The notes under the pieces are model-generated. The model made no database searches, had not been told where the DNA came from, and was given only the letters and a program-made list of their open reading frames with translations. 64,000 nt of DNA, taken from assembly GCA_044892525.1 (NCBI GenBank), contig CM097887.1:111206397-111270396 (forward strand), written 5' to 3'. Shown in pieces: positions 34,415-64,000 of this stretch. The DNA comes from Schmidtea polychroa (taxonomy: Eukaryota). Within the stretch, counting starts at the first letter, position 1. Each line of letters begins with the position of its first letter. A program made the position numbers and the translations under genes.

Positions 34415-34419
34415 AATAT

Positions 34420-35959: not shown

Positions 35960-35997
35960 TGATGCATTTTATTAATTAATTTGTTTATAATTTAATC

Positions 35998-36120
35998 CAA
36001 CTCTTCTTTTTCAATGATTTTTTAGTCTTATTTATAGTTTTTTCTTTCCGTTTAGTATTTCTTTTGTTTTCTTTCTGCTTTGTAACTTTTTCACGTTGAA
36101 CTATAACTTTTTTAAATGAC
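35998..36120 (-). CDS. Small Lys-rich basic ORF (possible DNA-condensing core peptide)
   Basis: MSFKKVIVQREKVTKQKENKRNTKRKEKTINKTKKSLKKKSWIKL between the ATPase and the next gene; start position approximate. Confidence 0.35.
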
Positions 36121-36144
36121 ATTTTTAAATAATAATAATCTATT

Positions 36145-36783
36145 TCATTTTTGTTTATAAATCGTAACACCTTTTTCATTGAAAATATCTGTTCTAACAC
36201 GTAAATCATCTGGACATTGTTGAGTAAAATCGAAAAATAAATACCCATGTGCTATCTTTGTTGCATCTTGGAAGGATTCAATTAAATATCTTCTATCATT
36301 AGGATAAGCCTGTCTTGCGAGAAAATCAATTATAGTTGCGTCTCGAGGATTTTTGAAAATAACTAAATATTGTACATTCAAATTACGCGTTCGATGACTT
36401 CCGCCTTGATGAAATAAATTTTGTGTTATAAAAATAACCGTTACTCCGATATGTCTACTGGTTTTTGTAAATAAATTATTAAAATCTTTCTCTTTATTTG
36501 TTTCCTGATATAAATCATCAATAATTATAACATCACCTTGATGTAATCTAGATGACCAATTTTTATCAAATCCCTTCATTATATTCATTTTTAATTTACA
36601 AAACTGATCTTGTGTCATACCATGCTCGTCATCAGCTCCCTTATGCCAGTATATTTTATTAAATTTTGATTTGAACATATTCGATTGTAATAATTTACAA
36701 ACAAATAAAGTTTTTCCACTACCACTGGGACCTACAATTTGATAAACGGCATCATTTCTTAATTCCATCTTAATTAATCTCAT
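36145..36783 (-). CDS. FtsK/A32-like DNA packaging ATPase
   Basis: Walker A GPSGSGKT, Walker B VIIIDD, FITQNLF..RTRNLNVQYLVIFKNPRD, HGYLFFD. Confidence 0.92.
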   Translation of the reverse strand: MRLIKMELRNDAVYQIVGPSGSGKTLFVCKLLQSNMFKSKFNKIYWHKGADDEHGMTQDQFCKLKMNIMKGFDKNWSSRLHQGDVIIIDDLYQETNKEKDFNNLFTKTSRHIGVTVIFITQNLFHQGGSHRTRNLNVQYLVIFKNPRDATIIDFLARQAYPNDRRYLIESFQDATKIAHGYLFFDFTQQCPDDLRVRTDIFNEKGVTIYKQK

Positions 36784-36857
36784 TTCATTAATATTATTGT
36801 TTATATTTGTTTAAATTTATTATTATAAGTATATAAAAATTATTTAAATTTTATTAC

Positions 36858-37304
36858 ATGACTTCATTATTATTGAGCAACATTAATTATAAAGGTAAGT
36901 GTTTAGTCAAAAACATGAAATTCCCATTAGGTAAACCCCAACAAGTTGTGGATAGAAGTGGGAACTATCCAATTATATTTTACAAGTCGGGTAGATGTCG
37001 GATAATGGCATGCAAGCAACCTCTTAAATTAGTTGATTTGAAATATAAGATACAAGATTTACAAATTCAGTCCATTACAGTAACTGCTGATATCGGTAAA
37101 TTTATAAATTTATACGAATTACAACATAAAGCTAAATGTATGTTTGAACCGGAAATATTTCCGGCCTTACGTCTTCAAAAGTATAATCCAGTTTGTGTTA
37201 ATGTATTTTCAAGCGGGAAGGTTGTATTACTTGGAATAAAAACTCTAGACTATAATCTCTATGTAGAGAACATTATTTCAGAAATTAAAATGTTAATTAA
37301 TTAA
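36858..37304 (+). CDS. TATA-binding-protein-like protein, 148 aa
   Basis: FEPEIFPALRL..PVCVNVFSSGKVVLLGIK matches TBP repeat 2 (YEPELFPGLIY..LIFVSGKVVLTGAK); IIFYKSGRCRIMACK matches repeat 1. Confidence 0.8.
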   Translation: MTSLLLSNINYKGKCLVKNMKFPLGKPQQVVDRSGNYPIIFYKSGRCRIMACKQPLKLVDLKYKIQDLQIQSITVTADIGKFINLYELQHKAKCMFEPEIFPALRLQKYNPVCVNVFSSGKVVLLGIKTLDYNLYVENIISEIKMLIN

Positions 37305-37343
37305 TTTTGTTTGTATTGATTTTGTTTTTAGTAGTTAGAAAAA

Positions 37344-37730
37344 ATGTCAAAAGGTAAAGAATATATTTTTATTTATAATTAATAATCTTTATATCTAGTT
37401 TACTTATTTGAAGTAATTTTAAAGAAGTTTCAAGAATTATACCCAGGAATAAGAAATACCATAGATTATTGTGCACCAGAGTTACTTATAAATAAAATAT
37501 TTCGTTTAACAGGTATTAATATAGAACAACTTTTAGAGTTGCACTACGATATGGTTCTAAGGTTTGACACTAGATGCATTGAAAATTGCATTGTTTGCAA
37601 AGATTCTATGAGATTGTCATGTCCCAATGGGTGTCCATGCTGTCACGACTTTAAAAGGGATCAATCAGTCCATATCTTATTAGCTGAAATGCGTAAAGCA
37701 TACTACACAGATGAATTTAACTTGAAATAA
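37344..37730 (+). CDS. Cys-rich Maverick orphan, 113 aa, one 45-nt intron (37354-37398)
   Basis: MSK|VYLFE... spliced in frame with ORF 37539; C-x3-C-x2-C..C-x3-C-x-CCH cluster. Confidence 0.6.
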
Positions 37731-37790
37731 AATGTTTTATATCATTTGCCTTTTACGTTGTTATTGTGAAATAGTCAAAGTTTTTATTGT

Positions 37791-38019
37791 NNNNNNNNNN
37801 NNNNNNNNNNNNNNNNNNNNNNNNNNNNNNNNNNNNNNNNNNNNNNNNNNNNNNNNNNNNNNNNNNNNNNNNNNNNNNNNNNNNNNNNNNNNNNNNNNNN
37901 NNNNNNNNNNNNNNNNNNNNNNNNNNNNNNNNNNNNNNNNNNNNNNNNNNNNNNNNNNNNNNNNNNNNNNNNNNNNNNNNNNNNNNNNNNNNNNNNNNNN
38001 NNNNNNNNNNNNNNNNNNN
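37791..38019. other. Assembly gap (229 N)
   Basis: Run of N at the inner edge of the right TIR. Confidence 1.
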
Positions 38020-38822
38020 ACCGAGTGTTTATCACATTCATTGTCATCATTATAGTACTCGGGTTCAAAAATGTATGCATGACTTTTTCTTATATATGTT
38101 TATAATTCAATAAATATATATCTATAATAAAATGATACAGAATTATGTAATACCATACCACCCCCCCCCCTTAGGGTACCCATACATATATTACGTAATA
38201 CTGCATATTTGGCTTGGTTTATACTCCTCACTACTCTAATGAAGTATAATTATTATATAAGAGGTCAAAGGTCAATTATTATGTAAGGGGTTAAAGGTTA
38301 ATTATGATAGAATAGGTCAAAGGTCAATTATTACATAAGGGGGTTAATTATGGCGGAAAATCGAGTATTACGTAATCAAAATATAATTACGTCATTTTAT
38401 ATGTGATTGTGTAATTTTACAAAATTACGTAATACCATACCATCAGCCCCTAGGGTACCCATGCATATATTACGTAATACTGTATATTTGACTTGGTTTA
38501 TACTCCTCACTTCTCACTACTCTGTCAAAATGTATTGAATTTTTTCCAGGGATATTTGACTTAGTTTATACTCCTCACTACTCTAATGAAGTATAATTAT
38601 TACATAAGAGGTCAAAGGTCAATTATTACATAAGGGGGGTCAATTGTGACTGAAAATAAAAAAATCGATTATTACGTAATCAAAATATAATTACCTCATT
38701 TTATATGCGATTACGTAATTTTACAAAACTACGTAACACCATCCCACTCCCTATGGTACCCATACATATATTACGTAAAACTGTATATTTGGCTTGGTTT
38801 ATATTCCTCACTTCTCACTACT
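38020..38822 (-). repeat. Right terminal inverted repeat of the Maverick
   Basis: Reverse complement of 20946-21809 with scattered mismatches; ends CTCACTACT. Confidence 0.9.
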
Positions 38823-38968
38823 ATTTCATTTTAAAATTTCAATATGAATTCATACTGGTTAAATGAGAAAGCGAAAAACTGGAAAATATCAATGTTTAAA
38901 CCTAAAAACATTATTTAATGAATATTCGCAATCCACCCAAATGCATATTTAAAGACTTTGAAGATATA

Positions 38969-42473: not shown

Positions 42474-43937
42474 TTTTATTAATATATTTTAGATTGTTTA
42501 GAGTTTAAGTCATATTTATTGATATGTATATTTAAAATTCTCTAACTTCATTGTTTGTTGATTTAAAAGAATATGCATGAATCGTTCTTGTACATGTAGG
42601 TCTCGCTTTCGTTTTGGTTACAATTTTTTCAACTTTTATTTATTTACTGAACTTATTTTTTGTTACCTAAACTAGTTTATTTACATTTTCGTTTTTTTAT
42701 TTTTAGCAAATTTAACAACTATTTAAATTTAAAACTATTAAAAAGCATAAAAACACCTCTTAAGCTGGATATGCTAGAAAGAAGAAAAACCTGTTAAGAT
42801 AGCAAAAGTTCTGGTTTGGTTCAGTTATTAGAGATCAAGATGTTGATAAAATAAGAAAGGCAGGAAAATATGTAAATTTTAAGATTTGAACCAGTAATGC
42901 TTTATCTTCGCTTTCAAATTGGAATGAAACTCAATGTAGAAAACCATCAATCTAACTCAGTTAACAAATTTTTGCATTCAGGCTAAACAATAAAAATGAA
43001 ACATGACTGTATTTTTTTTGTTATTTATTATTTAATTGAATTTTGAGTTCGTCCAATCAAATTCGTTTTAGTCGTATCGGTATATCTCGGATTTTGACGT
43101 ATGTCGTAGTCCTTATTTTTACTTTACAATTCATATAAATTTTACAACTTAAGTCATATTTTATCTTCTTGGCATTGTTACAATGAACAATCGAATTACA
43201 AGATGGATATAAAAGCCACAGGCAAATAAACAGAATTGCCAATGGGTTGAAAAACGTAAAAGAATAATGTAGCGAGAGTAAAAAAAGGAAAATTGAACTT
43301 AGTGATAACTGAATATATTCGAATCGAGCGTACCAGAAAGGAACATCTCCGTTGAAAGAATAATCCCTTCGCAAGGTTATATTGATATTGAAAGGTGTAG
43401 AGCAAAAGAGTTGTTTAAAGTTGTGGTTGTTTCATTAAATAGTGTTGGGCCAAGCTCCGAAGGTGTTGGAAAAACGAACCTAGGAAGGGATAGAGTAAAA
43501 TAAAATAAAAACATATAAAAATACGAGAAACATAGGAGGAAACAAATTAAATATCCAGAAAGAAATTAGAATAAAATTAGAATAACTAAATAAAATAACA
43601 AAACCCCTAAAGGAAAAATAAGACAAGAGGGAAGGCACCTAATAAACGACAGTAAAAGAAAAAAAAATAAAATAGCAGAAAATTTAAGAAAAATGAACAA
43701 AAGTAAAAGAAGAAAAACAAAATAAAAATAAAAAAATCATCCATAAGGCTAATTAAAACAAAAAAGGAAGTTACAATAAAATAGCAACAAAACCACAAGA
43801 AAAACAGATAAAATAATAAAAAATAGGAAAATAAATAAAATAATAATAAAAATAGGAAAAAGTCATTAAAATATACCTGATTACATTAAAAAACATAAAA
43901 ATCATAATAAACAATAATATTACATGCAAGTCGCGTC

Positions 43938-44058
43938 CTGATTGGACGAAAAGTAATATATAAAGAGCGACAAAAATCTGTAGAGTATCATTCTAACCCG
44001 AAACTCTACAGGTAAAATTTTATCCTTTATAATATCATTCTAACCCGAAACTCTACAG
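43938..44058 (+). promoter_or_regulatory. Putative LTR promoter: inverted CCAAT, TATA, Inr-like TCATT, duplicated leader and mini-intron
   Basis: CTGATTGG 43938-43945, TATATAAA 43957-43964, 26-nt direct repeat 43986-44011/44033-44058, GT at 44012. Confidence 0.55.
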
Positions 44059-46283
44059 AAAAGCTAGGAACCACTCACAAGCACAGATTATTGAACCATA
44101 TTCATTTATCGGATAACATATACATTGAACGGAGATCGAATTCAGCTCAGTCGAACGAGTCTATCTAAAGAAAACTTATATTACTTTGATCTAACACCTT
44201 CGGAGATTTTTGGTAAATTATGTTTTAGATTTTAGTATGATGATCTAAATATTTATTATGAATTTAACAAGTCGTTTATAATCCAATAAATTTCATATTT
44301 TAAACGAAGGTGTTGCTTTCTCTCTATGAGGCTGGCGACGGCGTCCTCTGGAATCCGGGTATGATGCAGTTGGGTTTTTCGAACGTCCTACGGAGAGGAA
44401 ATTTACGAATATGAACTCGGGAAATTGAAGTGATAGAACTAGCCCAGGATCCATATGAATTTAGAAACTAAAGTGATTACTTAATGAATACGAGATTTAT
44501 GCTAACCAGAGTCATCATGCCCGGATTTCAAATGTCGTGGTCGCCAGGTGAACATTTATTTAATTGATTTTCTCATAATTCCATTATTTCTATATTGATT
44601 CACTGAATAATTAAATTGTATTGTTGCACATTTATTGAGAATGGAGTTGCGATGAGACGGGTCGAGTCGTCCTTCACACCGGTCCAAGAGCAGTGGGCAG
44701 AGATGCGTACTGCCTTGGGTGGGTTGTGAGGAGCGAGGAAACCATGTGAGATTTAACAAATCAAGTAAATGATTCTTTCATCGAGTGTAATCCACCCATC
44801 TTAGTCGTCGAAAACCATCCAATGCAGAAACTTCTGAGTGACATAGTTTGAGTCAACGATACCTTGGGAACTCCCGGAGGCATACCATTAGAACTATCAT
44901 CAGCCTTGTATCCAATCACGTCATTAATAATCTTTGATTTGGAGCCTTATTCGTCTTGCATTGAGAGAAGCGACTGCTAGAACGTCTGCCGGAAGGAGTT
45001 ATTAATTTCGAGTTTTTACGAGAGATTCTCTGTACTAAGCCCATTTCGTATCTTACAATCTGAAGGTGCTTTGGAAGCTACACCGCCGGGAGGTTAGCGA
45101 ATAGATCCATCGTCTTGCTTATCGTCGACTCCGGGGGGACTTAATCATCAACCGACATCTAGCCGCTGTCATCGATAATAGCCGTTTTAGAGATGAATGT
45201 AAACATCTCTAGATAGTAGATTTAAACACTGGCTATGAGTCCGAAGGAAACGGTCGCCAGCGACATCGGGTGGGCGTAGTAGACTGCCGGGAAATCGGTT
45301 GATAAGATATCTGAAGCCTCAGTCACGAGCGAACGAGTTGACAGTTTTTATCTCAAAACCAATTAGTGGAGCAAAATCTAAATATGGAATCGATCTTATC
45401 TAGTAGATTCGCAATTTAGCCCACACAATTAGATTCACGAGTTTTCTATGACACCCTCTTAGATTTCCACCTATCTAGAAAGTCAGCCAGCGATGTCATG
45501 TCTAGTGTGCAGATAGTGGATAAATTTATCTCACGATTGTGTAACGGTAGACCAGGAGATGGTAGACTACATGTCCAATCCGACAGTGAGATTACGTCAT
45601 ACTGAATAGTAGAATGTTCTACCTAGTCCACGACCACAGGCTGAAGATAAATCATACAATGCATGCATACGAACAGACCTGACAACATCTGCTAGCCTAC
45701 CTCCAGGGTAAAACTAATACACCACTACTCACAAACAAGCGTCGTTATGACGACATTTATGGCGCAAGATTTAAGATGATCAAATAGCAAATTATGATAA
45801 GACTTAAATTGAATTTTGCGGTTCTTTTATGAAGCCGATCACGGCGGTTTAAAACCCCAATAGTCACCCGTCATACCGAACTATGTTTTTGTGACTTCAC
45901 GAGTGCGAAATTTTACGAGTATAGTAGGACGGGGAGTGGGAATGCTATTACTAGGGAAGGATAATTATAACAAACTCGACTGTGGTAAATTAATAAAAGC
46001 ACATTAAATAAAAATGGCCAATTTCGGACAACAAACATAAATTCAAAGTTAGGATAAATGTATTATTTTGAGGAAGCCCGTTTTCTTTTTTTTTTTTTTT
46101 TCTCTATCAGTGTGGATGCTTGCAGACAAATGAGTGTAAATGTTGACCAGTGATATGGGTAAGTGGGTCATTGTCGAGTAGGATGATTGGAAATAGGGTA
46201 AAAATTGTAGTCAAAATTTGGAAACGACACTCCAACGATTTTTTTTTTAAACTCTACAATTAACAAAACGTCTTGATCTTTAG

Positions 46284-47045
46284 ATGCCTGCTTCAACCGC
46301 TACGAACAAGGATCTCCGTCCCTGCTTCTCCTGCGCAGATAAAAACGCAGACATAGCACAACTCCACTCATACATTGGGGCACTGAAAAAGAGAATTGAT
46401 CTCTATGAAGGCACGTGGTTCTCCCCGCCACAGATGAAGGAGGAGCGCAGTAAAATTCTTCGGTTGGAACATTGCCGGGACAGCCTCCTAGAGGAGAGTC
46501 GCTGTCAAAGACTGACGATCAAGGCGCAATCGGAAGCCCTCCACAAGGTCTACACGGAGGCAGAATTGGCCAAACGGGTACGAGAATTTCCCGTCTTGGA
46601 GGCCAGCAATGTTTTTCCCACTCACCACCAAAGTACTTCCACCGCTACAACCAGTTGTCTGGGGCACGGCTCCTATCTGCCGCCTGTTCCAGCACCGGCC
46701 TTATATAGTTGTCAGCCGCCGGTAGGTGGTCCATCCGACCCTATCTTGGCTCCAGTTTTAGTGACATCAGTTACAGCACCCGATGCGGACAACCATCAAC
46801 CACAGCGTAAAAGAAAACGGCCGACCCGAGCCGCCAAAAATCAAAGACGTCGAGATGCAATCGCGGCTCTCGAGGCGTCGTTATCTGTGGCCAAGTCTTC
46901 TCTGGAGAAGTTATCGTCAATACCCTCTACCCCCACAAAGGAGATATTCCGGGTGATCTCGCCCGAAGGGGTCCAGCTCGTGCGAGACCGTCGGTTACCG
47001 GTCGACATCGACGAGATGATCGCCGAAGGGGAAGTTTTCCCATAA
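46284..47045 (+). CDS. LTR-encoded protein of unknown function, 253 aa (CxxC, coiled coil, basic NLS-like patch, acidic C-terminus)
   Basis: Intact ORF directly after a ctttag acceptor; homologous to 25825-26567. Confidence 0.75.
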   Translation: MPASTATNKDLRPCFSCADKNADIAQLHSYIGALKKRIDLYEGTWFSPPQMKEERSKILRLEHCRDSLLEESRCQRLTIKAQSEALHKVYTEAELAKRVREFPVLEASNVFPTHHQSTSTATTSCLGHGSYLPPVPAPALYSCQPPVGGPSDPILAPVLVTSVTAPDADNHQPQRKRKRPTRAAKNQRRRDAIAALEASLSVAKSSLEKLSSIPSTPTKEIFRVISPEGVQLVRDRRLPVDIDEMIAEGEVFP

Positions 47046-47586
47046 TTGGACGTGTCGTTGACCCATCTCTCATTCCACGCGATCAAGCTCAACAATCTTT
47101 ATAAACGACTTAGATGATGCGTGTTGTGTACTCTCCTACGTGTTGTGATCGGAAATTTGTGTTCATATGTATCCTCAATTTCATTAATATAATCATAGTA
47201 TTCGTTGTGTTGTCCCGTAAAAGTTATAGAGTGATGAGTTATGACTGGACGAATGGATTGGAATGATCATTGGAGAATGTGGGTCGTCCCCTTGGACCAG
47301 GGTCGTACCGAGAATACATGACGAGTAGGGGTAAGACCTTCTTAGGCACCGAGGAACCTGAACTGAGAGGGGGTCCGTAGTAGTCCTAAGGCAGGGGCTC
47401 ACCTGCGGACCAACTCCGACCCGTGTGAGCAGTACCAACGTGGGTAGATCATCACGGGCTCACATGAGGGAATATTTGTAAATCATGCGGGTTATGTGGG
47501 GGAAGGGCCCCGAGCTAAAGGAACATGATGCCAGCTGCACTACGAATGTCCGTTTGACTCCTCCCATATACGCCCAACATGATTTT

Positions 47587-47604
47587 TGGGGGCTCAGCCG
47601 GGAT
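47587..47604 (+). promoter_or_regulatory. Primer-binding site complementary to tRNA-Pro
   Basis: TGGGGGCTCAGCCGGGAT, 7 nt after the LTR end; compare the MLV tRNA-Pro PBS TGGGGGCTCGTCCGGGAT. Confidence 0.85.
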
Positions 47605-48088
47605 TCTACACTATCAATGCGATTTGTCGATCACCCATTATTGTGTTATGATGTGTTAGATTTAACAATTTAATTAAGGATGATTAAAAACGGAATCGGG
47701 ACTGAAACAAATCGATATTATAGTATAATAGAATGATGATACGAACTGTTTGTGTTTGAAGAGAGCATGTATGAATAAAAACGAACCTAAATGAGTTTGA
47801 ATGAAAATAAGGTTGAATGAATGTGAAAGAGTGCGGTGAGAAAAGAAAACGGGAATCACTTATTTTGTTTAGTTTAATTTATTAAATTAAAAAGAGGGAT
47901 GAAAGGAAGTAATGATAATAAAAGTAAATGATTAAAGTGGAAAATATGACGAGGGAATTCCAAGGATGGAATAAAATACAAAAGTTAGAAACATTAACAA
48001 TAAAAGTCAAACGAAAATTAAATACCAACCTGATAATATCATTAATAATACCCGCAAAACAAATAATAACAACACATTTTTTTTAGAT

Positions 48089-48568
48089 ATGTCGGAAGCT
48101 AGAAAACATCTACAACAGCTAAGCAGATTCATCGACATAGAAAACGATTCTCTAAAGACGTTAAGAGAAAAACTGCAACAAATAGAGACCCTAGAACAAC
48201 AACGCCACGATGCACCTCTGATATCAAAACAAAATTATTTAACCAATAAACTGGGAGCAACAAACACCGATACCGACTTGTCTACCCATTACCAATGGAT
48301 GCAGCAACGACTCGACGACCCCGCTCTGAACATCGAATATGTGAGAATACGCGAACAAGTAAAAACTCTGTCTCAGAGAATACGAACATCGATAGTAGAG
48401 AAAGCAGCGGTCTTAAGAACTTGTAACATTTGTAAGACGCGACCTGCCAAAATTCTAATTCTACCGTGTGGACACCTTAGCCATTGTGACGAATGCGCCG
48501 TCAGTTTAACGCATTGTTCTTTATGTGTATGTGTGATAAAGGAGAAGCACACGATTTACTTCAGTTAG
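48089..48568 (+). CDS. Coiled-coil plus C-terminal C3HC4 RING protein (IAP/MDM2-type RING, no BIR), 159 aa
   Basis: CNICKTRPAKILILPCGHLSHCDECAVSLTHCSLCVCVIKEKHTIYFS*; polypyrimidine-AG acceptor just before the ATG. Confidence 0.85.
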   Translation: MSEARKHLQQLSRFIDIENDSLKTLREKLQQIETLEQQRHDAPLISKQNYLTNKLGATNTDTDLSTHYQWMQQRLDDPALNIEYVRIREQVKTLSQRIRTSIVEKAAVLRTCNICKTRPAKILILPCGHLSHCDECAVSLTHCSLCVCVIKEKHTIYFS

Positions 48569-49157: not shown

Positions 49158-49475
49158 TGAAAAGTCCAGCCAGTAGGGGATAATAAGATCGAGTTGTTGA
49201 ATAGTCCAACCGGTCAGAAGAAGAAGATTGAGCTGTTGAATAGTGCCAGCCAGTCGTAAGATCGAGTTGTTGAATAGTCCAACCGGTCAGAAGAAGAAGA
49301 TTGAGCTGTGAATAGTGCCAGCCAGTCGTAAGATCGAGTTGTTGAATAGTCCAACCGGTCAGAAGAAGAAGATTGAGCTGTGAATAGTGCCAGCCAGTCG
49401 TAAGATCGAGTTGTTGAATAGTCCAACCGGTCAGGAGAAGAAGATTGAGCTGTTGAAAAGTGCCAGCCAGTCGTA
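49158..49475. repeat. Tandem repeat, ~4 copies of a 72-73-bp unit made of two related halves
   Basis: aagatcgagttgttgaatagtccaaccggtcagaagaagaagattgagctg(t)tgaatagtgccagccagtcgt starting at 49185, 49258, 49330 and 49402. Confidence 0.9.
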
Positions 49476-50857
49476 AAGGCCTAAAGTAATAGTGAGATAG
49501 CATTTAAGCTACAAGTTGATAACATTTAAATTACTAGTGAGATAGAATATTAAAGATAGCTAGAAGCAAATTGAGTTTGAAATATGGAATTTGAATTTAG
49601 AAAGGATCAAACGAGCTCGTAAAAGATGATAGTAAAATTCTTTTAGTAAAGAAGGAGAAACGGAAAAGGAAAATGAATTAGGAATAATAGAAACAAAGAA
49701 TAAGTATGAATAGATGATGAATCAAAGAGGAAATAATTAATTAATTAAAGGGGATCCCAGGTAAGTAGACAAAAGTTCTACAGAATTTTTTTGGTTTAAA
49801 CCGGTTAAACGAATTTTGTTTTGGTTCCAGAGCAGAACCGAGTAAAAGGAAATAGAGATGAAAGATTAAATGAATAAGCGGAACCGCGTAAAAGGATTAA
49901 GGAAAATATGGGGGGTAATAAGCAGTAACTGACAACGACCTATCGATATTATAAATGCTAACTATAGATAATTTATACGACTATATAGATAATTGTTACT
50001 ACCCCCAAATAGATAATTAAAAATCGACGAAAACTATGGGTTGATGGGTAATTATATTCCGCGGAGAAGTGTATGAGGGGAAATGAAGAGAAGCATAACA
50101 GAGGCCCAAAAATGGTGTCTGTGCTTGAATGTGGTAAAAAGGAATGATTGATTCGTGTAAGCAAATGCAACACGATATCATTTTTTCATTGTAGATACCC
50201 ATCCAACCAAGTCAATTCAGAACCAGCTCAAAAGGAAGCCAGAGAATATACAAACAACCCAGGAAAAGCAATTCAGAACCCGCATAAAGAAAAACAAGCC
50301 AATCTGAACACGGAGGACGACAACGACATCTTTACCTACGACGGAATTATCGAAATACCTAGCATCGACGTAATAGCAGCAGTCAATCAAGGACTCAGAT
50401 ATCTCCTCCGGAAATCAGCCGAGAAATTACGCGGAATATTCCTCGAAGGAAACACTATCAGAACCAAACTTGACCAATTCAGCAGCCGCTAACCGTAGAA
50501 AAATCCACGTGAAAAGACAGAAAAGAGTAAGAAAGAATCACGGATAAACCCAACCTTAGATCTTCAAGTAAGCCAGGAGACGTATTATTTTCAGGAGACG
50601 AATTAGATCAACTCAAAAGAGGACGATCATTTAGGCAGCAGAGAGGAATATCACAAGGAGCAAAAAGACCCCACAAAACACCGATATACGATCAAGAAAA
50701 CCCCACAGCCGGACATACGCCCAGTCGATCTAGAAGTAGAGAAAGCCTATCCGATATAACAAACAACCTAACCGGGTCAACAGAAGAATTATCCGTCCAT
50801 AGTTTAGCTACATCGCTGGAAAATTTAAAAGGAATAATAGAGTTTCAAGAACCAATC

Positions 50858-53800
50858 ATGACGAATGTGGTAAAAACCGACGAATATAAAGAAAAATTTA
50901 GAGGCGAACCATTCAACGGGAATGCGAACAAGTTGGCAACGTTCATAACAAATTTTGAAGTCTATATCGATGTGTGTGGATGGACATCAGAAGCAATTAG
51001 CAAACGGATGCCGTTGTTTTTATGTGATAGCGCATTAGAAGTGTATCTAGAAGCAAAAGAAAGAAATACGAAGTTAGACAATTGGGAAAGCATCAAAACA
51101 TTTTTGAGAAAAACATTCGGAGCCAGCAAACCAATAAATCAAGCCCTAGGAGAATTAGCAAGTAGAAAATAAAGAGCAAATGAATCCATAACGTTGTATG
51201 CGAGTGAATTGCGAAGATTGGCAAAGAAGGCCATGAACGGAAACTTGCCGGAGGAAAATTTAATTGGCTATTTCATAGAAGGACTGCACCGAGAAGAGGT
51301 AAGGGCCTCGGTGGGATGTCAAATGTGTAAAACACTAGAGGAAGCCATAGATTGGGCCACGAGATGCGAACTCCACCTCCCGGCACAAATGAATGTCATG
51401 CAAGAGGAAGGAAGAATCGCAACAGCAACGGTAAAAACTGAAAATGGAGAGAACAGCAATCATGAACCAAAAATGAATCAGTTTATACCCGGTGCGCATC
51501 AAATTTTCAAACCACCGCAAGGACGATCAAATGGGAATAACAGTGAACGCAACAACCCGAATAATGGGAATAATTTTAATAATCGACGAAACACGAACGA
51601 TAACAAACAATGCCGAACATGCGGTAAACCAGGACATTGGGATAGAGATTGTTACCGAAACGCAAATTGCAATAGGTGTGGACGACGGGGACACACGGAA
51701 AATATATGCCAATTGAGAGGATGTTTTAATTGCGGTCAACCAGGTCATATCTCAAGAGACTGTCGAGAAAGGAGCCAACAACAACGACCACCCCAGCGAA
51801 ATAATAACTATGCACCAAATCCGCAACGAAAAAGTAATCCTAGTGAGGGAAAGCAAATGAATGTGATGCAAGAAATTTCACAAATGAAGCAGATGATGCA
51901 ACAAATGATGAGACCGAGACAAGAGCAAGTACCACAACAAACCCAGAATATACGCATGATGAGGAGCACCGAGAATCTTAACAATTATGAAGTGCAACAA
52001 CATGCACAAGAATGGCAAAGACTACAAGCTGAAGAAGAGAGGATAAAAAGAGAGCGAATTCAGCAGCGACAAGAACAACCATTACGAATAAATATGATGA
52101 GAATGGTAAGGGAGATAAAAGAGCAATATTGTTACAATTACGGTAAAAATCCAAGAGTTGTACCTATGAGCGAACCAGAGAAACCGAAAGAAACAATTCC
52201 AGCAGCAAAAAAGGAAAATTCAACAACATCGCTAAAAGGAAATCAGAGAATTCAGAAAATATTTTGGAAAAAGATAAAAGATAAAATCGAAAGAGAAAAT
52301 GAGAAAACAAAAACAGAAGCAGAAGCGGAAAATAACGAAAATGAAAAACAGATTAATCATCTAAATCATGATATGATACGAGGATTAGACTCAGAGGAGC
52401 TAACGATACTCGAGAACAAAAAATTAAAGAAAGTACCAAGAATGAGAAATTTACGAATTAATATGATGAGGACAACAAAGAAGGTGTTGTCAACAGATGA
52501 CGATGAGGATTATGTGAGTAGCCTTGGTGGAGAAATGTTACAGTTAAATGAAAATATCGACCAACTAAGAGAAAAGATCGGAGCAGATGAGGATGAAAGT
52601 GAAAGCGACGTGACAAGCGAAAGCGAAGACGAGAATATCGAAATGAAATTGAGAAAAGAAAGAGAAGAAGCGATAAAACAAGTAAAGGAAATACTTCCAG
52701 TGGTGGTAAGAAACCAGGAATTCATTGACATCATACCATACAGACGCTTCACACAAAGGATAATGAAACTAGAAAGAAACGAAAAAGATCTAATACCAAA
52801 CGAGGAGAAAGCGATAATAAAGAAGTATATGGAAAAAATGAAACAAGCGGAGACAACACGCTATGTAATAAAAATCGGAACGAGCAAAGGACTCGAGAGA
52901 ATATGGATAAAAAGTGCAGTTACAGACGATCTCTTCGATTGGATAAGAGAACATTTGGGCAGCTCGAGAAAGAAAGAATACCTGTATCAATATCAAGGAG
53001 AACAAATCAAACCAGACATGCACCTAATAGATGCATTGATCTGGCCAGGAGAAACTCAAATATTGAAACTGCATAAAGAGAAGCAACCAGCAAATATTCA
53101 CGAATGGGCTAAAGACGCCAAGGCCGAGTATGACTTTAACATCAAGCTGAAGCTGGAACAAATAAAACAATGCACCTTGCGACGAAATCTAGATAAATTA
53201 ATCAAACAAATCCAAGAACAAGTTGAAGATAACTGGGATTTGCTCATAACAAGACGAACTGCAGACATGCATGAACTAATGGGCCGACTGCGAGATACAG
53301 AACTGCTCCGAATGAGTGATTGGAGAACCATAAATTTGATCCACAAATATGGAAGGTTGAAAGAAACGCAACCGCAGAAATTGGAAATAACCATATGGTT
53401 ACCAAACGAGGAGAAACGACGAATAAAGATGAGTAATCAGAGTACGGTGGATGACTTAGTAACCAAGATAAACCAAGAGATAACGGAAAAAGTACGAAGC
53501 GAGAGCAGCGATGGTATGATAGATGACGTAGTCATGATGTACGATAAAATAATACTACGGGCTGAAGACGATACCTCGTTAAGTGAAATGGGAATGTGGG
53601 ATAATCATCAAATCATCAGAATATTGCCCATGGACGAATTCCGAACAAGAGATGTAACATACCAGAAAGAAATACGAGACAGGATGAAAACGCTATATCA
53701 AAAATCAGTAGAGATAATTGAAATTCATCAACAGTGGCTAAAAGAAAAAGAGCTTCAAGGAAAAATAAAGAAACTAAGTGTTAGATCCTGCAGACGAACC

Positions 53801-55615
53801 CCATGGGAAAGGATTTGGAATGCGGAAAACAAAGAATGGGAAATCAGGAAAGGGATTTTCGTGGAAACAGACATTGGTGAGATAGAAAGCGAATCAGAAG
53901 AAGAGGAAGATGAACCTCCAAAATACGAAGAGGACGAAATAAAATCGACATCGGACGACGAAAGCGAAACGGATGTTACATCAGAAAGTGAAACGGAAAC
54001 CAGATATATTCATGCGATGAGAAAGAAAGAACGCGAATATGCCGATATGGACAGCGAAGAAGCGATGGAAGCTCGAGAACGAGAAGAGAAGGAAAGATAT
54101 AAACAATTAGGTGATATCTTAGCAACGGGAGCAAAAAATCAAAAACGTCAAGTAATAGCATTGGCTAACATCATCCTAAAGACATCAGAGAATATCCACA
54201 ATCTAAGAGAAATGGCGAAAGCGATTGAGGAATACCGACAATATAACGAATGGTACCCAGAACAGCTAGAACAAATTATTAGGAAATGGAGAAACCAAGA
54301 ATGGGCACAAGATACCCAGGAAAGGTATCGTATCCGAGTCAAGTATCCCGACAAAAGCATTGAGGATACAGAAGTACATCCAACAACAAAGATCAGAGAG
54401 TTAAAAAAGAAATTAGCATACGAAACTCCATTTCACCTACAACTATTCGGAAAATCGTTGGATGATAATGCAGATGTCGGAATAACACCCATGAGATTGG
54501 GGGAGATCAATGTATTGACAATGGCAGAAACATTGGGAAAACCGATTAAAAGGAAGAGCAAATCCAGTAAACCTACGAAAGGTAGCTTGAGTACACCAAG
54601 CCCTAACAAAGTGGCGAGTAAATCGAATGAAACCGAGGAAATCGAGGAAATTATATTGGAAGACAGCGATGAAGGAGCTGGAGAAAGATCACCAATTCTG
54701 GTAAGATGGCCGACAGGAGCCGAAATATGGACAACAAGCCAACCATCAACTAGCTATCAGCAGCCAAATAAGCTAAGTATCGAGGAGATTATCGATAATA
54801 CAACAGAAACCGAAACCGACGAACAATTCCAACGACAGAAAGGACCAACGAAAGCAACACCAGAAGGTCAAACGGACAAAATAATAGACGAATGGAACGA
54901 ATGGCTGAGAAACAACGATAGCTCATTGCCAAGAACGGATAACGAGAGAAACCCGAATTATGAAAATACAAGGGAAGCCGGAACAATGATGGAGAAACGG
55001 GCAAAAGGGAGACCCAAGAAGCAAGGAGAAAAACCGGAATTTAAAACCAGAGAACAGTTGAAACAAGAACAAGGACAAGTCAGACTAGAAAAACTGGATA
55101 AAATAGTGTGGGACTTAAAAGAAGCTCAACCAACAATCGAAAGAGGCGAAAAATGGATACGGGAGCTAGTAAAAGATATGCTAATAATAACGAACCCACA
55201 ATTGAGACGGTTATGGCAACGAAAAGTAGCAAGCGTAGATGCCAGGCAGCTATGGAATACAATATCCGGAATAATTCCGAAATTAATCAAAGAGAAGACA
55301 AAAACCACTAAAACCGATTGGGAAGAGACAAGAAGAGTAATTGAACAATTAACTTTAAACGCAAACGACGACGAACATTATTTAGTAGTATTAACGTATC
55401 TAATGTACAATTTGATGGGATTAGCAGCAAGGAAAATACCTAACAAACAATTCGCAAATCATGTAGAAATGACCGTTACAATCATTGAAAATACAATCGA
55501 ACCACATATTATCCGCGCCGGTGGGTGGAAAAGACTCATACAAGCGCCACGAAAAAACGAGCAAGAGAGATCAATGCAAATTCGGTTGAAGAAATTGCTA
55601 AACGAGCTGGAATGA
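50858..55615 (+). CDS. gag: Extended Gag: capsid, 3 CCHC knuckles, 3 ubiquitin-like domains, C-terminal Bcl-2-like domain; one internal TAA (51170-51172)
   Basis: EPFNG..F..NFE..W, RK*RANESITLYASELRRLA (typical RKQ..ES motif), CRTCGKPGHWDRDC, CNRCGRRGHTENIC, CFNCGQPGHISRDC; ORFs 50858 and 51194 share one frame. Confidence 0.88.
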
Positions 55616-55666
55616 GAATTGCCATTGAAAGACCCAGCCAGCAGAAAAGCGTCGATTAATTCACTA

Positions 55667-57560
55667 ATGATGACCATGATGATATGGATGCTCTGCACCA
55701 GTGGAGCCGCGGGATTTACCATTTACGACTGTGACAATTCGATAATAGGAGAAAGATACTCCCTGAGAGATATAGAGGAATGTAGACAGGCATCTCCGAA
55801 TAAATTAGATATAGTAAAAAAGAAAGTCTCCTATCACGTATACCAAGAATCAGATTTCATTAGAACGCAAGCTAGAGAATGCGTAGTATCGAAGAAAGTG
55901 TTGGCATACTACTGTGGACAATACTCATATTCAACCCTTATATTACCGGGATTAGATAAAGAAATAGTACCTATACAACGGGAAGACTGTAAAGAACTTT
56001 TTAGAACCGGAGCGATGAGAATCAGGGATGGAGTAACCATACACGGACAAAGCGGAATGATCAAGACGGAAAGTATCTATGTAGCCGGACGAGTAAAATC
56101 AACTGATGGATCATGTAACGGAGGCACATATACGATCAGAGGAGAAGTGATCTCGGGAGTAGTAGTAATTGAGTCCTACACAGTGGAGTTGAAGGAATAC
56201 GAAGCACAATTCGACGCAAACAACTATCAAATGAAAACCAACCCAGCATGCAGAGCTACGGAAAACGTGTGTAGAACGGGAATTTCGACTATAATATATG
56301 AAGCTAACACCCAAAAATGCCGACTCCAATTGTTAAAAAGTGCTCTATTCAATGAAGTAAAAGGAGAAATTTACGAAAACGAGGATGACGATGAAGAGAA
56401 TGGAAACGTAAGGATGCGAAATGGGAAACCAGTCCCGCCATCCCCCAAAGAAAAGAGACTCACAACCCAAAAAACACCAACGGCATTAATTACAGATGAT
56501 CCGGACATCGGCATGAGATTCATTAGAGAAAAAGAGACCACCAAATGTGACAGCATAGTATATCGGACGAACTACGCAGGTATCTACATGTCAAGGCAAG
56601 TAATAGACCGAGCAGTGGGAAAGGTAGCAACAGAGGACGTAAAATTGTACCTGTACGCTAATAACAAAATGGACTTTTTATTTCATCGAGGACAAACGAC
56701 AATGCAAAAAGTGTATTACGATCTTATACAAAATGACTGTTCATTGAATAAAGAGATACTAAAAACAAAATTAGCTATCGCAATAACACACCCAGATAAC
56801 ACAATGCCATCACTCCCGTTACCGGATGGACATTTTGGTAGAATGGTGGGAGAGGTAATGTATACATATGCATGTACCAAGACATTTGCGCGACTGCCAA
56901 GAAAGCCCACAATTCCACCAGGGAAATGTGCAAACGAATTAGAAATTAGCTACAAAGGGCGGAACAGATTCGTTCAACCAGTCACTCGAATTATGAACCC
57001 AATTGGATTTTATCCGAACACCTTTAACTGTTCAAATGCATACGGACCGTTATATGAAAAACCCGATGGGAAATGGATAATGTTACCGGTAAAAACCGAA
57101 GTACAAGAACCTAAAAAGTTTGGATTAATAGAACTCGCAACAGAGCAAGACTTCAAACCAATTGATGTGTCAAAAGCGGGTATGTACTCACCAGAGGATT
57201 TAGAAACAGCACGACTAAACGTACTATTCCCAGCAAGGCGAGAATCCATTCTATCGAATATGGTTACCATAACTGGGGGAACGAATTTCCAGTCAGGCCC
57301 CAATTACGAACTATTATTGTCACCCGATCATTTTCAACAAGCCACGTCAAACATGATGAAAGCAATGTGGGGAAGATTTCTAGTGTTCGGTCAAATGATG
57401 GCAGGAATATTGGGAATCATCTTAATTATTCAGATTGTCAGGGTGATATTGACTCAAATGTTAGCGTGTTTTGATATCTATAAGAGAGAAAAGAAAGTAA
57501 ATTGGAAGTTGATAGTAGGTTTTCTACCATTTTTGGCAAAAACAATGGTGTTACACGGTC
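55667..57560 (+). CDS. env: Envelope-like class III fusion glycoprotein (chuvirus G / herpes gB-like), N-terminal part of ORF 55619-60301
   Basis: Signal-like MMTMMIWMLCTSGAAG, then IYDC..YSLRDIEEC..Q..C.V..YCG.YS..C..AGR..GSCNGG..VVV Cys pattern; TM FLVFGQMMAGILGIILIIQIVRVIL. Confidence 0.75.
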
Positions 57561-58009
57561 ATTCTAAAGATATACACAGAATAAAACGATTAATCAAAAT
57601 ACTGACAAAAATAAAAGGGACCGACGAAGAAGTTGGCAGACGATTTCGGAAAACAATGTATGATGAGGCAACGAGAGCGCAACTAAAAAGGAACAAACCA
57701 AAATTCCTGGACAGATTTAGAAATCGGTCAAACAGCAGCGATAGCGATGATGGCGACAACGGGAATGACAAATACCCATATCCAAGTAGAAACCCGAATG
57801 AAAAGCCAATAGAAACAGCGCCATATTGGGAGAAAGAAAAAACAAATACCTGGATAGCCAACGGAAGTTATATACCACCAGATATCGTTGGACAACAAAC
57901 AGCTTTGACCATGACACAAAATATGTATCCACAGTTACCAAGTCAACCAGGGATGAACTATATGCCAACCCGAAGAACGAAAAGCGTAGACCAAGCGGAT
58001 GACGTAAGA

Positions 58010-61000
58010 ACGATAGCAGTGATGAGTTCACCAGGAGGCGCGGCAGTAACAGTCATGATCCAAATCAACGGGAAAGAGACAAGCGCAATGATAGATACCG
58101 GAGCAAATGTATCAGCAATAGCAATCAACCAAATACCCAGTAAATGTTGGAAAGACATCGAACAAACAACTATCCATATCATCGCATGCAGTAAAGAAAC
58201 CGTAGACGTAGTAGGAAGATGGTGGACTACGTTAAGATATCAAGATAACGAAATTGAAACGTATCTAGCGGTGATACCCAAACTGAGTGAACCATGTATA
58301 ATCGGAACGGATTTAATGCCAGAATTGTTCAAGGAAGTAGTAATCGATTTAACAACAATGTGTCTAAAGGACAAAACGGGTAGAATATGCAAGATGAACG
58401 CAATAATTAGATGTCCGGAGAAAATAATTGTACCAGCAAAATCACAGATGATATGTCAAATAAAAGTGGATGCAGGAATGGAAGGAGAAGTCATTTTTGA
58501 GCCAAGCAGATCATTCGAAAAACGACGAGAATTACCATTAGCAAGAGAAATAATAACAATAAATGAAGACGGGGAAATACCAATCAACATCACAAATTTC
58601 GAGGAAGAAGATAAAATCATATATGAAAATGAAAGATTGGGTAGATTGACACCCATGATAGACATCGAATTACCAAAAATCACCAACGAAACAACGAAAG
58701 TCGGCGAATTATGGATAATTGACAGCACCTTGCTAACGGAAAAAGAAAAGGAAAGACTTCAACAATTATTGATAGAATATAAAGATATATTCGCAATTTC
58801 GGATTTAGATTTGGGAGCATGCGATGTTACATTACACGCAATACCATTAATAGACGAAACTCCAATCGCACTACGTCCATACAAACTAGCAGAGAAGCAA
58901 AAAGAGATAGCCGAAGCAGAAGTACAAAAAATGCTAGATGCACAAGTGATCGAACCAAGTTGTTCGCCATGGCAATTTCCAGTAGTCATGGTGAAGAAAA
59001 AAGATGGTACTCAGAGATTCTGTATCGATTATCGGAAATTAAATGCAGTAACAAAAAGAGACACATACCCGTTACCAGACATCAATGAGATGTTACTTAT
59101 GTTACAGGGGGCCGCATATTTTACATCTTTGGATCTGAAAAGCGGATATTGGCAGATCAAAGTCAAGGAGGAAGACAAAGAGAAAACAGCATTCACATTG
59201 GGCCGAGATCTATACCAATTCAGGAAAATGCCATTCGGACTGACCAATGCCCCAGCATCATTCCAGAGATGTATGAATTTTGTCACACATGGGATCAAGC
59301 AGTGTATGGTATATATTGATGATTTATTAATATATTCAGCAACGTTCGAACAACATTTGGAAGACATTAGAAACGTGTTCATCCGATTACGACAATGGAA
59401 ATTGAAACTCAAACCATCCAAATGTGATTGGGCAAAAGAAAAAGTTACGTTCTTAGGACACATAGTGTCAGCAAAAGGCAAAGAACCAGATCCAAGAAAC
59501 ATAGAAAAAATAAAAACATGTCCAGCACCAAAAACTGTCACCCAAGTTCAAGAATTTCTCGGATTATGCGGATATTATCGAAAATTCATCAAAAACTATG
59601 CAGGTATTGCGAAACCAATACAGGAATTAGTGAGAAAGGATATTTCATTTATTTGGGGTGCAGAACAACAAAAAGCGTTTGAGACATTGCGAGATAAATT
59701 GATTGAAGCCCCAATACTGGTACATCCTGATTTCAAGAAACCGTTCTTATTAGCAACAGATGCAAGTGGATATGCAGCCGGAGCAATATTAGGACAACTA
59801 GATGAAGAAGGAAAAGAAAGAGTGATTGGATACTACAGCAGAACGTTTAAAAAGCATGAGAAAAACTATTCCGTAACCGAGAGAGAAGCGTTAGCAATTA
59901 TACAAGCGATTAAACATTTTCGATATTTGTTGTGGGGACACGAAATATGTATCACAACAGATCATCAACCACTAGTATGGCTTGGCCAACACAAAGAAGC
60001 TTCAAGTAGATTGATGCGATGGGCAATGCAGTTACAAGAATATTCACCGTTCATAAAATTCAAAGCGGGAAGAGCGAATGCCAATGCGGATTGTATGTCC
60101 AGATTTATCTTTCCAGATTTAGTAGATCACGAAATGCAACGAATATGTCTGATGGTGGCAGAGGATTTGGATTTTTGCCAATTACGGAAAGACCAACAAG
60201 AGGATACAGAGTTGAAGCAAATCATTGAATATGTGAAAACAGGGAAAGCAGAGGTATATGAGAAAGATCAAAAATTGAAGGAGCATATGGATAAACATTG
60301 ACATCGATATATTATCGAGAAAGACTGGTTGTTGATAATGGATGGAGAAAAAAGACTGATGTGCATCCCCGAGAATAGACGTAAAGAGCTGCTAACACAA
60401 TACCATGACGGAAGACTCGGAGGACATATGTCATCTAAAAAGACGTTGGCACGAATGAAACAAAAGTATTTTTGGCCTACATTGACCGAGGATGTAACGG
60501 AATGGGTGAAAAATTGCATAACTTGCGCAACCAGAAAAAACACGGGAACCAAATGGAAGGCACCATTAAAGCCAATGCCAGTACCAGCAGAACCAATGAC
60601 CATGATATCAATGGACGTGGTCGGTCCACTACCAGAATCAGATAGAGGAAATATATATATATTGGTAATCACAGATTATTTGACAAAATTCCCCGAAGCA
60701 TTCGCAATGGCAGATCAGAAAGCAAGAACAATCGCGAAAATACTAGTAGAGGAGATATGCTGTCGATATGGAACACCAAAACAGATATTAACTGACCAAG
60801 GAACAAATTTCATGAGCGAAATAATGAGCGAAGTCACTAACTACTTCAAGATCGCAAAATTAAGAACATCACCGTACCATCCACAAACTAATGGTATGAC
60901 AGAAAGATTCAATGGAACACTGATTCAAATGTTATCAAATTATGTCGATCGTCATCAACGCGACTGGGACGAGTATATAAAATTATGTTTAATGGCTTAC

Positions 61001-62482
61001 AGAATGTCGATTCACGCGTCCACAAAGATGAGTCCGTTCAAGTTGATGTACGGCAGAGAATGCAATATGCCAATGGATTTGGAGTATCAGCCACCAATAT
61101 CACAGTATATGGAAATAGACGATTATGTAACCAAGTTCAAGGAAAGAATGCAGGAAATCTGGGAAACTGCAGGATTGAATATAAAATTTTATCAAGAAAG
61201 TTACAAAGATCTACATGATAGAAAGAAAAACGTCAAACAGCATACGTTTCAAACAGGCGATTGGGTGATGATCGAAACACCAGAATTAGTTCCAGGAACC
61301 ACCAAAAAATTACAACGAAACGGTAAAGGTCCGTATGAGATCCTATTCATCGGAGAAACCAATGTAAGAGTACGATTGGTAAACAACCCCTTCACGAGGC
61401 CAATATATGTAAATGTGGCACGATGTAAGCCAATACCGAAAACAGCCACCAGCCAGCCGGAAGGGCGAACATTAACAACAAGATCACAAACATATAGAAT
61501 AAATATGTTACAGCAGATAAACGAACCAACAGGTAACCGATTGGGGTTACAACCATCAGAAGCCGAGAAAATCATAAAGGAAGTGAAAGCTAAAATGCCC
61601 GGATGGGCAGAAGACAGATTAGATTTTGAGATATTGGGAGGTCTGCTAACAATGATCGAAAATTATGCAAACCGAGAAAGGACACACCCATTACTCAGGG
61701 TAGTAAAAAGTCAATGGCCTATATTATTTACGATCACAGACCATTATGGAGATACACCGCTGCACAAACTTTTAAAGGTCGGGAATAATGAACAAATACT
61801 GGAAACGATCGAAGCATTTCGCGATTGTAACGTTTCAACAGATCAAGAAAATAACCAAGGTTACACTCCACTAATGATAGCAGCCAATCGGGATAAAGCT
61901 AAAGATATTATCATCGCATTACTTGAAACTGGGTCAAAGATAACCACACAAGACCACAACCAGAAAAATGCACTACATCATGCAATCGAAGGGAAAAGTA
62001 CGGAAGCCTTCATAATCTTAATAGATCTATTATCATATGAGGATAATAGGGAGATAGGAAACATGTATGACGGGTTATTAACTGGAATCAAAGAGAAATT
62101 AATAACAATTACTGGAATACTAATTGCATGGAGGAACCCGATCAAAAACGATTATATGGTAGATATAAACGAAACATTTACCAAAGGAGAAAATACCTTG
62201 ATGAGGGAAGCGATGAGAGGACATCACCTATTCGAAATTCCAAATCAACTACTACAACGTGGCATAAAATTTTCAAATCACAAAGACGAACAACTAATCA
62301 GAAAACGAATTACCAACTTCGAAAAAGCTATATCTCAATTTACCGATAAAGTACAAGTAAAATTTTGGGAAACCGTGAGTGTATTATATATGATGGAGAA
62401 TATGAACAACATTCGAGAAAACTACCTAAGTATTATTCAAGTGCTTACGGCGGAAGAACGCATTAACAGTTCAAACAAGTAA
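58010..62482 (+). CDS. pol: Pol: aspartic protease, RT, RNase H, integrase, then ankyrin repeats; one internal TGA (60299-60301)
   Basis: IDTGA (58094), YIDD (59312), TDAS/EREALA/TDHQPL, H..H..CxxC, MDVVG/TDQG/TERFN (DDE), GPY (61328), GDTPLH/GYTPLM/KNALHHA; ORFs 55619 and 60329 share one frame. Confidence 0.93.
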
Positions 62483-64000
62483 AAGATAAAAATAAAGAAA
62501 GTAAAAACAAGAGAGTCTGAGGAACAAGTCGATCAAATAATAACCGATATAGCAACAACAAGTAAACCAAAGATAATAAACTCAGACCAGGAGATAATAA
62601 TACGCAAAGCCAAAGAGGTGTTCTTTGAAGAAATGCAAGATCTATCCGATGAAGCGATACTAGCAAAAATAACAAAAACAGTACACACCTACGCAAGAGA
62701 CCAGACCACAAATCTAGACATAGAAAAAATAAAAACATTTATACCACTAGCATTCACCTTACCAACAAAAGACTCAAGAACACCATTACAACAAGCCATT
62801 TTAGCAGCAAATGAAAACAGAGCAATAACCATCATAAGAATCCTTGGAGACTTCGGAGAAGAATCTAATGCAAAAAATGAACAAGGAGAAACAGCAATAA
62901 TGTATGCAGCCATAACAAATATACACCCGAAAACATTACATATACTACATCGATCGGGATCAAGACTGGACGAAATATCAAACGAAGGAAATTCTACCAT
63001 GGATTGGGCAACCATACAACCAAACTTGGAAATGATTAGATTCATTTGTAAAAATGCTACAAGAACTGAGGTAGAAAATATCTGTAAAAACACGTCACAG
63101 TTCCAATGGAACACGATACGGATGAACTTAGAAGCCATGAAGTTATTGCTAACATGGAAAATACCGCAAAGCAATAAATATGCAATAAATATAAATGAGT
63201 TCTACGAAAACGGAGAAAATGCTATGGTTAAAAATACACTAACAAAAGGAGGAACTCCGAAAATCATAATGATCGTATTGAACAGAGAAGACCTCAAATT
63301 CACGCAAAATCTAAACGAACAAAAGCGGATTGGAAAACATCGCCGTATACAATTGAGAGAACTGGTAAAAGAATGGAATAGAAAGAGACATGTAGCAACA
63401 GGCAGAAAAGAGTTTGAATTCGAGGCAAAATTAGCAAGGAATAGAGTGTTAACGGCATATCGCAGATTATTGAACGACATAAATGTCGAGGACGACATTT
63501 CAAACGATAGCGGGGGAGATAAAGACGATAAAGACGACGATGATAATGAACAAGGTCGAAACGGGAATGGAGAGAAAGAGAAATCAGAGGAAAATAATCA
63601 AGGGAATAACGACTCAGGTATAAAAAAGGAGGAAAATAAACCGGGAAGCCGAACAAAGGAAGAGGAAAAGACGAATAATGGGAAACAGAGGGTATGCCCA
63701 CTTTTTACCAACAAGGAAATGGAAACAAATATGATGGTAATGATACTCATACTAACAATGATAGAAATGATAACAGCCCACGGTGGAATGAGAACGATAA
63801 AAGAAGCCAAGGAAACGGAAAACAAAGACAACAAGGAGAAGGAACTAAAGCAAGAAAAGAAGAAGCAAGTACGAGAGCAACAATGGGATTTAAAAGAAGA
63901 ATGGGATCTAAAAGAAAGATGCATACTAGGAAGATGTATGTCGAGAGCATATCGGAGACTAGTATTAATAAATGAAGATACAGAACCAATAACGGAAGTA
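62483..64000 (+). CDS. Continuation of the same frame: further ankyrin repeats, acidic/low-complexity region and a hydrophobic segment; open to the window end
   Basis: 506 stop-free codons after TAA 62480-62482: SRTPLQQAI, NEQGETAIMYAA, NEGNSTMDWA, MMVMILILTMIEMI. Absent from the ORF track because it has no stop in the window. Confidence 0.8.

Follow-up and report, generated by a model that had tools for sequence, protein, structure and literature searches.

A Burro-type giant retroelement of Schmidtea polychroa: its single polyprotein frame and the history of a broken copy

How is a retroelement built whose reading frame runs for more than 13 kb, is stopped at only four places and seems to join Gag, envelope (Env) and polymerase (Pol) parts with ankyrin repeats? 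This question is raised by a stretch of 64,000 nucleotides from Schmidtea polychroa (contig CM097887.1, positions 111,206,397 to 111,270,396; hereafter the window), for which an earlier note, made from the letters alone, proposed a giant Gypsy element related to the planarian Burro elements. We consider it highly probable that the family of this element encodes Gag, a Bcl-2-like domain, Env, Pol and ankyrin repeats in one frame of a Burro-type Ty3/gypsy element, of which the copy in the window is complete but broken.

One reading frame in the family

The interval from 50858 to 64000 contains exactly four in-frame stops, TAA at 51170, TGA at 55613, TGA at 60299 and TAA at 62480, as the note had listed. 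The five stop-to-stop pieces all lie in one frame, and the other two forward frames hold 432 and 230 stops over the same interval. In coordinates extended past the window end, the frame runs on for 732 bases to 64732, with 4,624 codons counted from the ATG and a full length of ~13.9 kb. All parts of the element described below inside the window are on the forward (+) strand.

A search with the region of the reverse transcriptase (RT) gave 39 other copies (40 scored of 985 candidates), of which one is cut by a contig end and 38 are complete; they were picked by closeness in RT and are not a random sample. The start methionine, at 50858 or at the codon after it, is kept in 39 of 39 copies. A sense codon occupies each of the four stop sites in all 38 complete copies, which also have the final stop in common, and each of the four stop alleles occurs once in the whole genome. 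The whole frame is open in 13 of these 38. Thus a single open frame is shown by natural copies, and readthrough at 55613, which the note had kept as an option, is excluded. The four stops are private defects of the window copy and not features of the family. Since the first of them falls inside the capsid, this copy is unable to make Pol. Separate genes for Gag and Env-Pol, or their joining by programmed readthrough at 55613, could be read from the position of the TGA in the window copy, at a domain border where the Bcl-2-like region gives way to the Env signal, but in view of the sense codon in 38 of 38 copies and the single occurrence of the TGA allele we regard this arrangement as practically impossible. 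The huge polyprotein that the note ascribed to an active ancestor is borne out as to its single frame, but it is not only ancestral, as copies with an open frame are present in the genome today. Furthermore, a search with the Bcl-2-like region gave 150 scored matches (992 candidates), and 66 of these lie inside open frames of at least 4,700 codons.

Among variants common to several copies, 938 are synonymous and 287 are missense, against a neutral expectation of 28% synonymous. The polyprotein frame is therefore under purifying selection. One argument for an originally open frame has to be given up. All four stops had been traced to a single C>T class of change, but when the commonest codon of the sister copies is taken as the starting state, transitions account for three and a transversion for the fourth. 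Any stop codon can be reached from some sense codon by a single change, so reversion by one change carries no weight.

The frame lies in a complete element bounded by long terminal repeats (LTRs), from 43443 to extended position 74004. Its 30,562 bp are at the top of the guessed range of ~25-30 kb. The 5' LTR (43443-47579) was put at 4.1 kb and measures 4,137 bp, with the ends TG...CA. Its counterpart was predicted to lie past 64000 and is found at 69868-74004; the two are identical, with 0 differences. The 4-bp target site duplication (TSD) ATAG stands at 43439-43442, and the expected second copy is located at 74005-74008. A primer-binding site starts 7 bases past the 5' LTR (47587-47605), and its 19 nt are complementary to the 3' end of the host tRNA-Pro(TGG) plus CCA. 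With TG...CA LTRs, a short TSD, a tRNA primer site and the order protease, RT, RNase H and integrase, the element is classified by its sequence as a Ty3/gypsy LTR retrotransposon. The Pfam matches RT_RNaseH and Integrase_H2C2, a weak Ty3_capsid match and a GPY motif also point to the gypsy type. These features, together with the published Burro anatomy, agree with the proposed giant Gypsy element of Burro kinship.

The tRNA-Pro(TGG) genes are found in a tandem array with a 475-bp period on contig C1 from about 130.90 Mb; the array pattern occurs 1,095 times on each genome strand, and its isoacceptor is the match to the primer site of the element. In the leader, a tandem repeat of four units of 72-73 bp each is observed at 49184-49476, followed by a donor-like site at 49762 and an acceptor-like AG at 50194, the latter kept in 39 of 39 copies. 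These donor-like and acceptor-like sites suggest that the leader may be spliced.

Domains along the polyprotein and their possible working

In Gag (50858-51766) the capsid region matches Retrotrans_gag (E 0.003 and 0.014) and Ty3_capsid (E 0.02), and three CCHC zinc knuckles are present (zf-CCHC E 5e-12). Two or three candidate ubiquitin-like domains, all weak, are located at 52931-54148 (PI3K_rbd E 0.002, ubiquitin E 0.19), and in a related family the same interval matches ubiquitin at E 5e-6. A weak but specific Bcl-2-like domain is found just before Env at 55160-55612 (Pfam Bcl-2 E 0.038); two related families give the same match at E 1e-5 and 0.002. When a profile of five sequences of this region was compared with the PDB, the 60 matches listed were all Bcl-2 proteins, the best at E 0.024. 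A single-sequence fold of the region had a predicted local distance difference test (pLDDT) score of 52 and no usable structural match. Env (55655-57451) is in frame and comprises a signal-like hydrophobic stretch, a fusion-glycoprotein ectodomain (Monjiviricetes_fusion E 2.6e-72) and a transmembrane helix at 57395-57451. It has no sequence match in the PDB, and by eye it is clearly homologous to sequences published as herpes simplex virus/glycoprotein B (HSV/gB)-type (PMC13524379). Hydropathy places helices at polyprotein residues 2180, 4292 and 4560.

Pol follows in the Ty3/gypsy order. The aspartic protease (58052-58327, DTGA at 58094; RVP E 7e-8) is separated by a conserved region of 130 residues from RT and RNase H (58991-60043, YIDD at 59312; RVT_1 E 2e-36, RT_RNaseH E 2e-39), and the integrase with its H2C2 zinc domain, catalytic core and GPY motif comes after RNase H (60365-61336; E 6e-21 and 6e-13). 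Ankyrin repeats form two blocks, 61802-62026 and 62801-63061 (Ank_2 E 8e-14 and 3e-7). A second membrane protein is predicted at the C-terminus, from 63731 to the window end at 64000 and beyond. Its two hydrophobic segments, 63731-63787 and extended 64535-64591 (hydropathy 1.69 and 1.77), enclose about 250 residues. This C-terminal region has no family or fold match (single-sequence fold pLDDT 39), and no homology could be demonstrated to the C-terminus of a smaller family described below. A fibronectin-III fold, suggested by the motif shape, found no support. Within the polyprotein pieces no MATH domain is matched. A short motif recurs about ten times near domain borders.

Several points weigh against the domain assignment as a whole. 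The Bcl-2 match of the window copy, like those of the two related families, and its ubiquitin match are below the curated cut-offs. The signal-like stretch before Env was read by eye, here and in relatives, and is below the hydropathy threshold. The 130-residue region between protease and RT has no match in Pfam or the PDB that would confirm a dUTPase, and no Pfam match to BIR is found in the polyprotein pieces or in the accessory open reading frames (ORFs) scanned.

The accessory ORFs lie on both sides of the polyprotein. An ORF of 253 codons inside the 5' LTR (46284-47045) has no Pfam match and is open over at least 95% of its length in 38 of 40 regions. A small upstream ORF (47975-48568) ends in a RING finger (zf-C3HC4_3, E 3e-8) and is open wherever it is present (39 of 39 copies). 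A separate TRAF-like gene with RING, zinc fingers, coiled coil and MATH lies past the window end, at extended 65298-66736. It is full-length, and its unbroken frame, taken from another copy, matches TRAF3 at E 2e-28; it is frameshifted in the window copy and open in 32 of 40 regions. Three further ORFs of 351, 254 and 224 codons (extended 66933-69613) have no family assigned.

Judging from the frame, translation as one protein of ~4,620 residues is likely. This giant protein is predicted to be cut into parts by the host signal peptidase and by its own protease. Gag and the Bcl-2-like domain would be made on the cytosolic side, and the signal-like helix would send the Env ectodomain into the lumen of the endoplasmic reticulum. 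The helix at 57395 would bring the chain back to the cytosol, with Pol carried on the Env tail, and the second signal/anchor pair would give another small membrane protein at the C-terminus. With such a topology, neither frameshift nor readthrough would be needed for equal yields of Gag, Env and Pol. By the identity of the domains, the Bcl-2-like, ubiquitin-like, RING, ankyrin and TRAF cargo may dampen host apoptosis and signalling of the TNF/NF-kB type. Equal amounts of an in-frame Env with Gag and Pol would also suit an element that moves only inside cells, where Env would serve intracellular budding or the tethering of Pol and not infection from cell to cell. However, three families whose Env is 37-38% identical have all retained the full ectodomain, cysteines and anchor included, and Env is open in young multi-copy elements. 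A purely intracellular life is possible in our opinion, but doubtful.

Four stops between identical repeats

The window copy has 0 LTR differences and 16 private codon changes (3 synonymous, 9 missense and 4 nonsense). If all 16 postdate the insertion, this combination has P 7e-5. Furthermore, eight private substitutions of this copy stand in both LTRs. Most likely, its changes predate its insertion. We lean slightly towards the explanation that it was copied from an already defective template with the proteins of working copies as helpers. Copies were dated by their LTRs in a set of 26 of 39, the window copy among them; three duplicates are left out, as are ten copies that lack either two full LTRs or a matching TSD. 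These dated copies show 13 private stops where 4.2 are expected from LTR divergence (P 4e-4), and 9 against 4.2 when the window copy is left aside (P 0.03). The excess, in a set picked by closeness in RT and thus not random, suggests that defective genomes are re-copied by helpers, or that LTRs are homogenised. Copying from a defective template has two findings against it: no donor copy with any of the four stops is present in the genome, and none of the premature stops is common to independent copies.

Gene conversion provides a different history, in which an ageing copy acquired the four stops once it was inserted and had its LTRs made identical later. Such conversion is documented in plants, where it affects about 25% of LTR pairs and a larger share when the LTRs are long (PMC7251063). 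It would equally place private changes in both LTRs, as seen for the eight substitutions, and it fits the absence of a stop-bearing donor; LTR mismatches across copies are still correlated with unselected load (Spearman 0.53). But conversion over all 4,137 bp would be required, and five other zero-mismatch copies have no stops and few private changes. Identical LTRs therefore usually mark young copies here, and we judge conversion a rather unlikely history for the window copy. A very young copy, to which the identical LTRs point, could also owe its stops to errors of assembly or polishing at a locus that is truly open, and nonsense changes, expected at 4.3%, indeed make up 4 of its 16 private codon changes (P 0.004, for this one copy and uncorrected for 36 copies). 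However, errors have no reason to favour stops, the window copy has 12 other private codon changes, the eight substitutions in both LTRs and the TRAF frameshift besides, and premature stops of the same private kind are found in other copies. An artefact is thus very improbable.

Strand-biased hypermutation of the APOBEC or ADAR type was rejected, as private changes over 18 copies are strand-symmetric (per 1000, C>T 54.5 against G>A 50.6, and A>G 34.7 against T>C 43.5). Of 28 frameshift events, two recur between copies, the first in three of them and the second in two; they may reflect a defective template in common, a hotspot or an artefact of the alignment.

Copying from a defective template with helpers can be extended to a larger picture, a giant endogenous planarian virus amplifying now. 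It would have two glycoproteins, a class III fusogen and an attachment-like one at the C-terminus, an anti-apoptotic and ubiquitin-signalling cargo and a captured TRAF gene, and its dead 30-kb genomes would be re-copied in trans often enough to mislead LTR dating. Taken in its entirety, this picture seems unlikely to us. If the stop excess over the LTR clock holds, it bears on the dating of LTR elements and on defective giant genomes riding in helper particles.

Relatives in the genome and comparison with known elements

Sister copies with two full LTRs are mostly 30.3-30.8 kb long. One copy of 37.9 kb (L008-L011) has an insertion of ~7.5 kb with two frames of ~1,085 codons ahead of the 3' LTR, and two copies in tandem at C1 72.64-72.70 Mb (L032-L038) apparently have one LTR in common and show the same breaks. 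The fetched copies have coding regions that are 95-99% alike but carry LTRs of at least two types, which over a part of the length agree to only ~79%. Which sister copy is closest to the window copy varies from one part of the frame to another. The changing relative and the LTR types suggest recombination between element lineages.

Smaller Gag-Env-Pol families are also present in this genome (L112-L131), 14.5-17.8 kb long where measured and with LTRs of 0.8-1.1 kb. Three of five loci fetched have single frames of 3,334-3,361 codons. These families contain ubiquitin-like and Bcl-2-like domains, a predicted C-terminal membrane protein and an Env that is 37-38% identical to that of the window; no match to the ankyrin block was found in them. 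One of them has the same kind of end as the window element, with a domain of ~310 residues set between a signal-like stretch and an anchor. The 14-18-kb relatives thus have the core from Gag over Bcl-2 and Env to Pol without ankyrin, which suggests how the giant form grew; they are possible intermediates to it. Downstream of the Env-bearing frame of one locus, a 486-codon frame on the reverse strand (L122:55-1512) has motifs that recall a DEDDh 3'-5' exonuclease, which we take to be a candidate assignment.

A profile search with Env over 1.84 billion proteins gave 2,055 matches. The top ones are long proteins in which Env is followed by a protease, often with RT and integrase. A tree was built from 29 Env rows: the window, two families of the same genome, 12 top matches and 14 stand-alone proteins chosen among the 150 listed. 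In this tree, a group with support 100/100 unites the window Env with 14 others, most of them embedded in polyproteins, and the 14 stand-alone glycoproteins fall outside it. Word-based protein searches with Env found no proteins of near or greater length, no usable match came from atlas searches, and a metagenome scan gave one short locus.

Two neighbours were observed elsewhere in the window. At 20840-38928 lies a Polinton/Maverick-like element of 18 kb that has long terminal inverted repeats and includes both N stretches of the window. Its broken ORFs match a protein-primed DNA polymerase B, a double jelly-roll capsid (weak), an A32-type ATPase and a chromodomain (weak). At 5483-7039 (+), an open frame of 518 codons has a weak protein-kinase match (E 0.005).

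Chary and Hayashi describe "ancient errantiviruses" of the order GAG-ENV-POL with HSV/gB-type Env, among them Smed_errantivirus_1 to 6, from flatworms (PMC13524379). Their survey limited the LTR spacing to 5-14 kb, and its main text does not contain the words "Burro" or "ankyrin". The gene order of these six, and probably the Env class, are the same as in the window element. Compared by eye, the window Env most resembles that of Smed_errantivirus_5, with 50 of the first 100 positions identical, and it has no near-identical counterpart among the six Env stretches listed. For a second family of the same genome, Smed_errantivirus_2 is such a nearly identical counterpart over this stretch (PMC13524379).

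The closest description is that of Burro1/GYPSM1 and Burro-2, -3 and -4 of Schmidtea mediterranea (PMC6431247, after Jurka 2007 and Grohme et al. 2018). In 2019 Burro was reported to have an in-frame env between gag and pol, ankyrin repeats and BCL2-like, ubiquitin-like and MATH/TRAF domains. These elements and the window element have in common a length above 30 kb with LTRs, a giant ORF, high copy number, a Gag with three CCHC knuckles, a BCL2-like motif before env (weak in the window), the in-frame env (in Burro with matches to mononegavirus glycoproteins, in the window to Monjiviricetes_fusion), the order protease-RT-RNase H-integrase, ankyrin and MATH/TRAF cargo (PMC6431247). The domain inventory and order of the window element are thus, by sequence, the published Burro/GYPSM1 planarian anatomy and not new. 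The note had called the inventory very unusual, which does not hold beside the 2019 report (PMC6431247) and the flatworm catalogue of gB-type GAG-ENV-POL elements (PMC13524379). The literature examined does not have such dozens of natural open-frame copies, by which the single-frame design is proved without reconstruction, nor a full TRAF gene as cargo, nor the 14-18-kb relatives from the same genome. The downstream full-length TRAF gene, the C-terminal pair of membrane segments and the stop excess were not found in the literature searched, a scope outside which Grohme 2018, Repbase and the supplements of PMC6431247 lie and may hold them. BURRO1 is described as PIWI-silenced and intestine-enriched (PMC8532177).

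There are also differences (PMC6431247). The ORF has 4,624 codons in the window element and 4,873 in Burro, in a published range of about 4,900-5,100 residues. The ubiquitin/SUMO-like motif that precedes the BCL2-like one in Burro may have a counterpart in the window (E 0.002 to 0.19, and 5e-6 in a related family), and the conserved 130 residues between protease and RT, without Pfam or PDB match, stand where Burro has a dUTPase-like region. The predicted C-terminal membrane protein is not mentioned for Burro in the parts consulted. A Burro-like element of Dugesia (Girardia) tigrina resembles the window element in its single giant ORF, in-frame env and a MATH_TRAF accessory ORF outside the polyprotein, but it has an ORF of 5,140 residues, two knuckles, a midasin-like region and its MATH ORF upstream (PMC6431247), against three knuckles and a downstream TRAF in the window. 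Finally, Burro1 has a BIR domain, and its MATH lies inside ORF1; in the window element no BIR is detected, and MATH lies in the full-length downstream TRAF gene (PMC6431247). The window element is therefore not Burro1 itself. Likened to Burro by published descriptions, it may belong to Burro-2, -3 or -4, or else represent their counterpart in a sister species.

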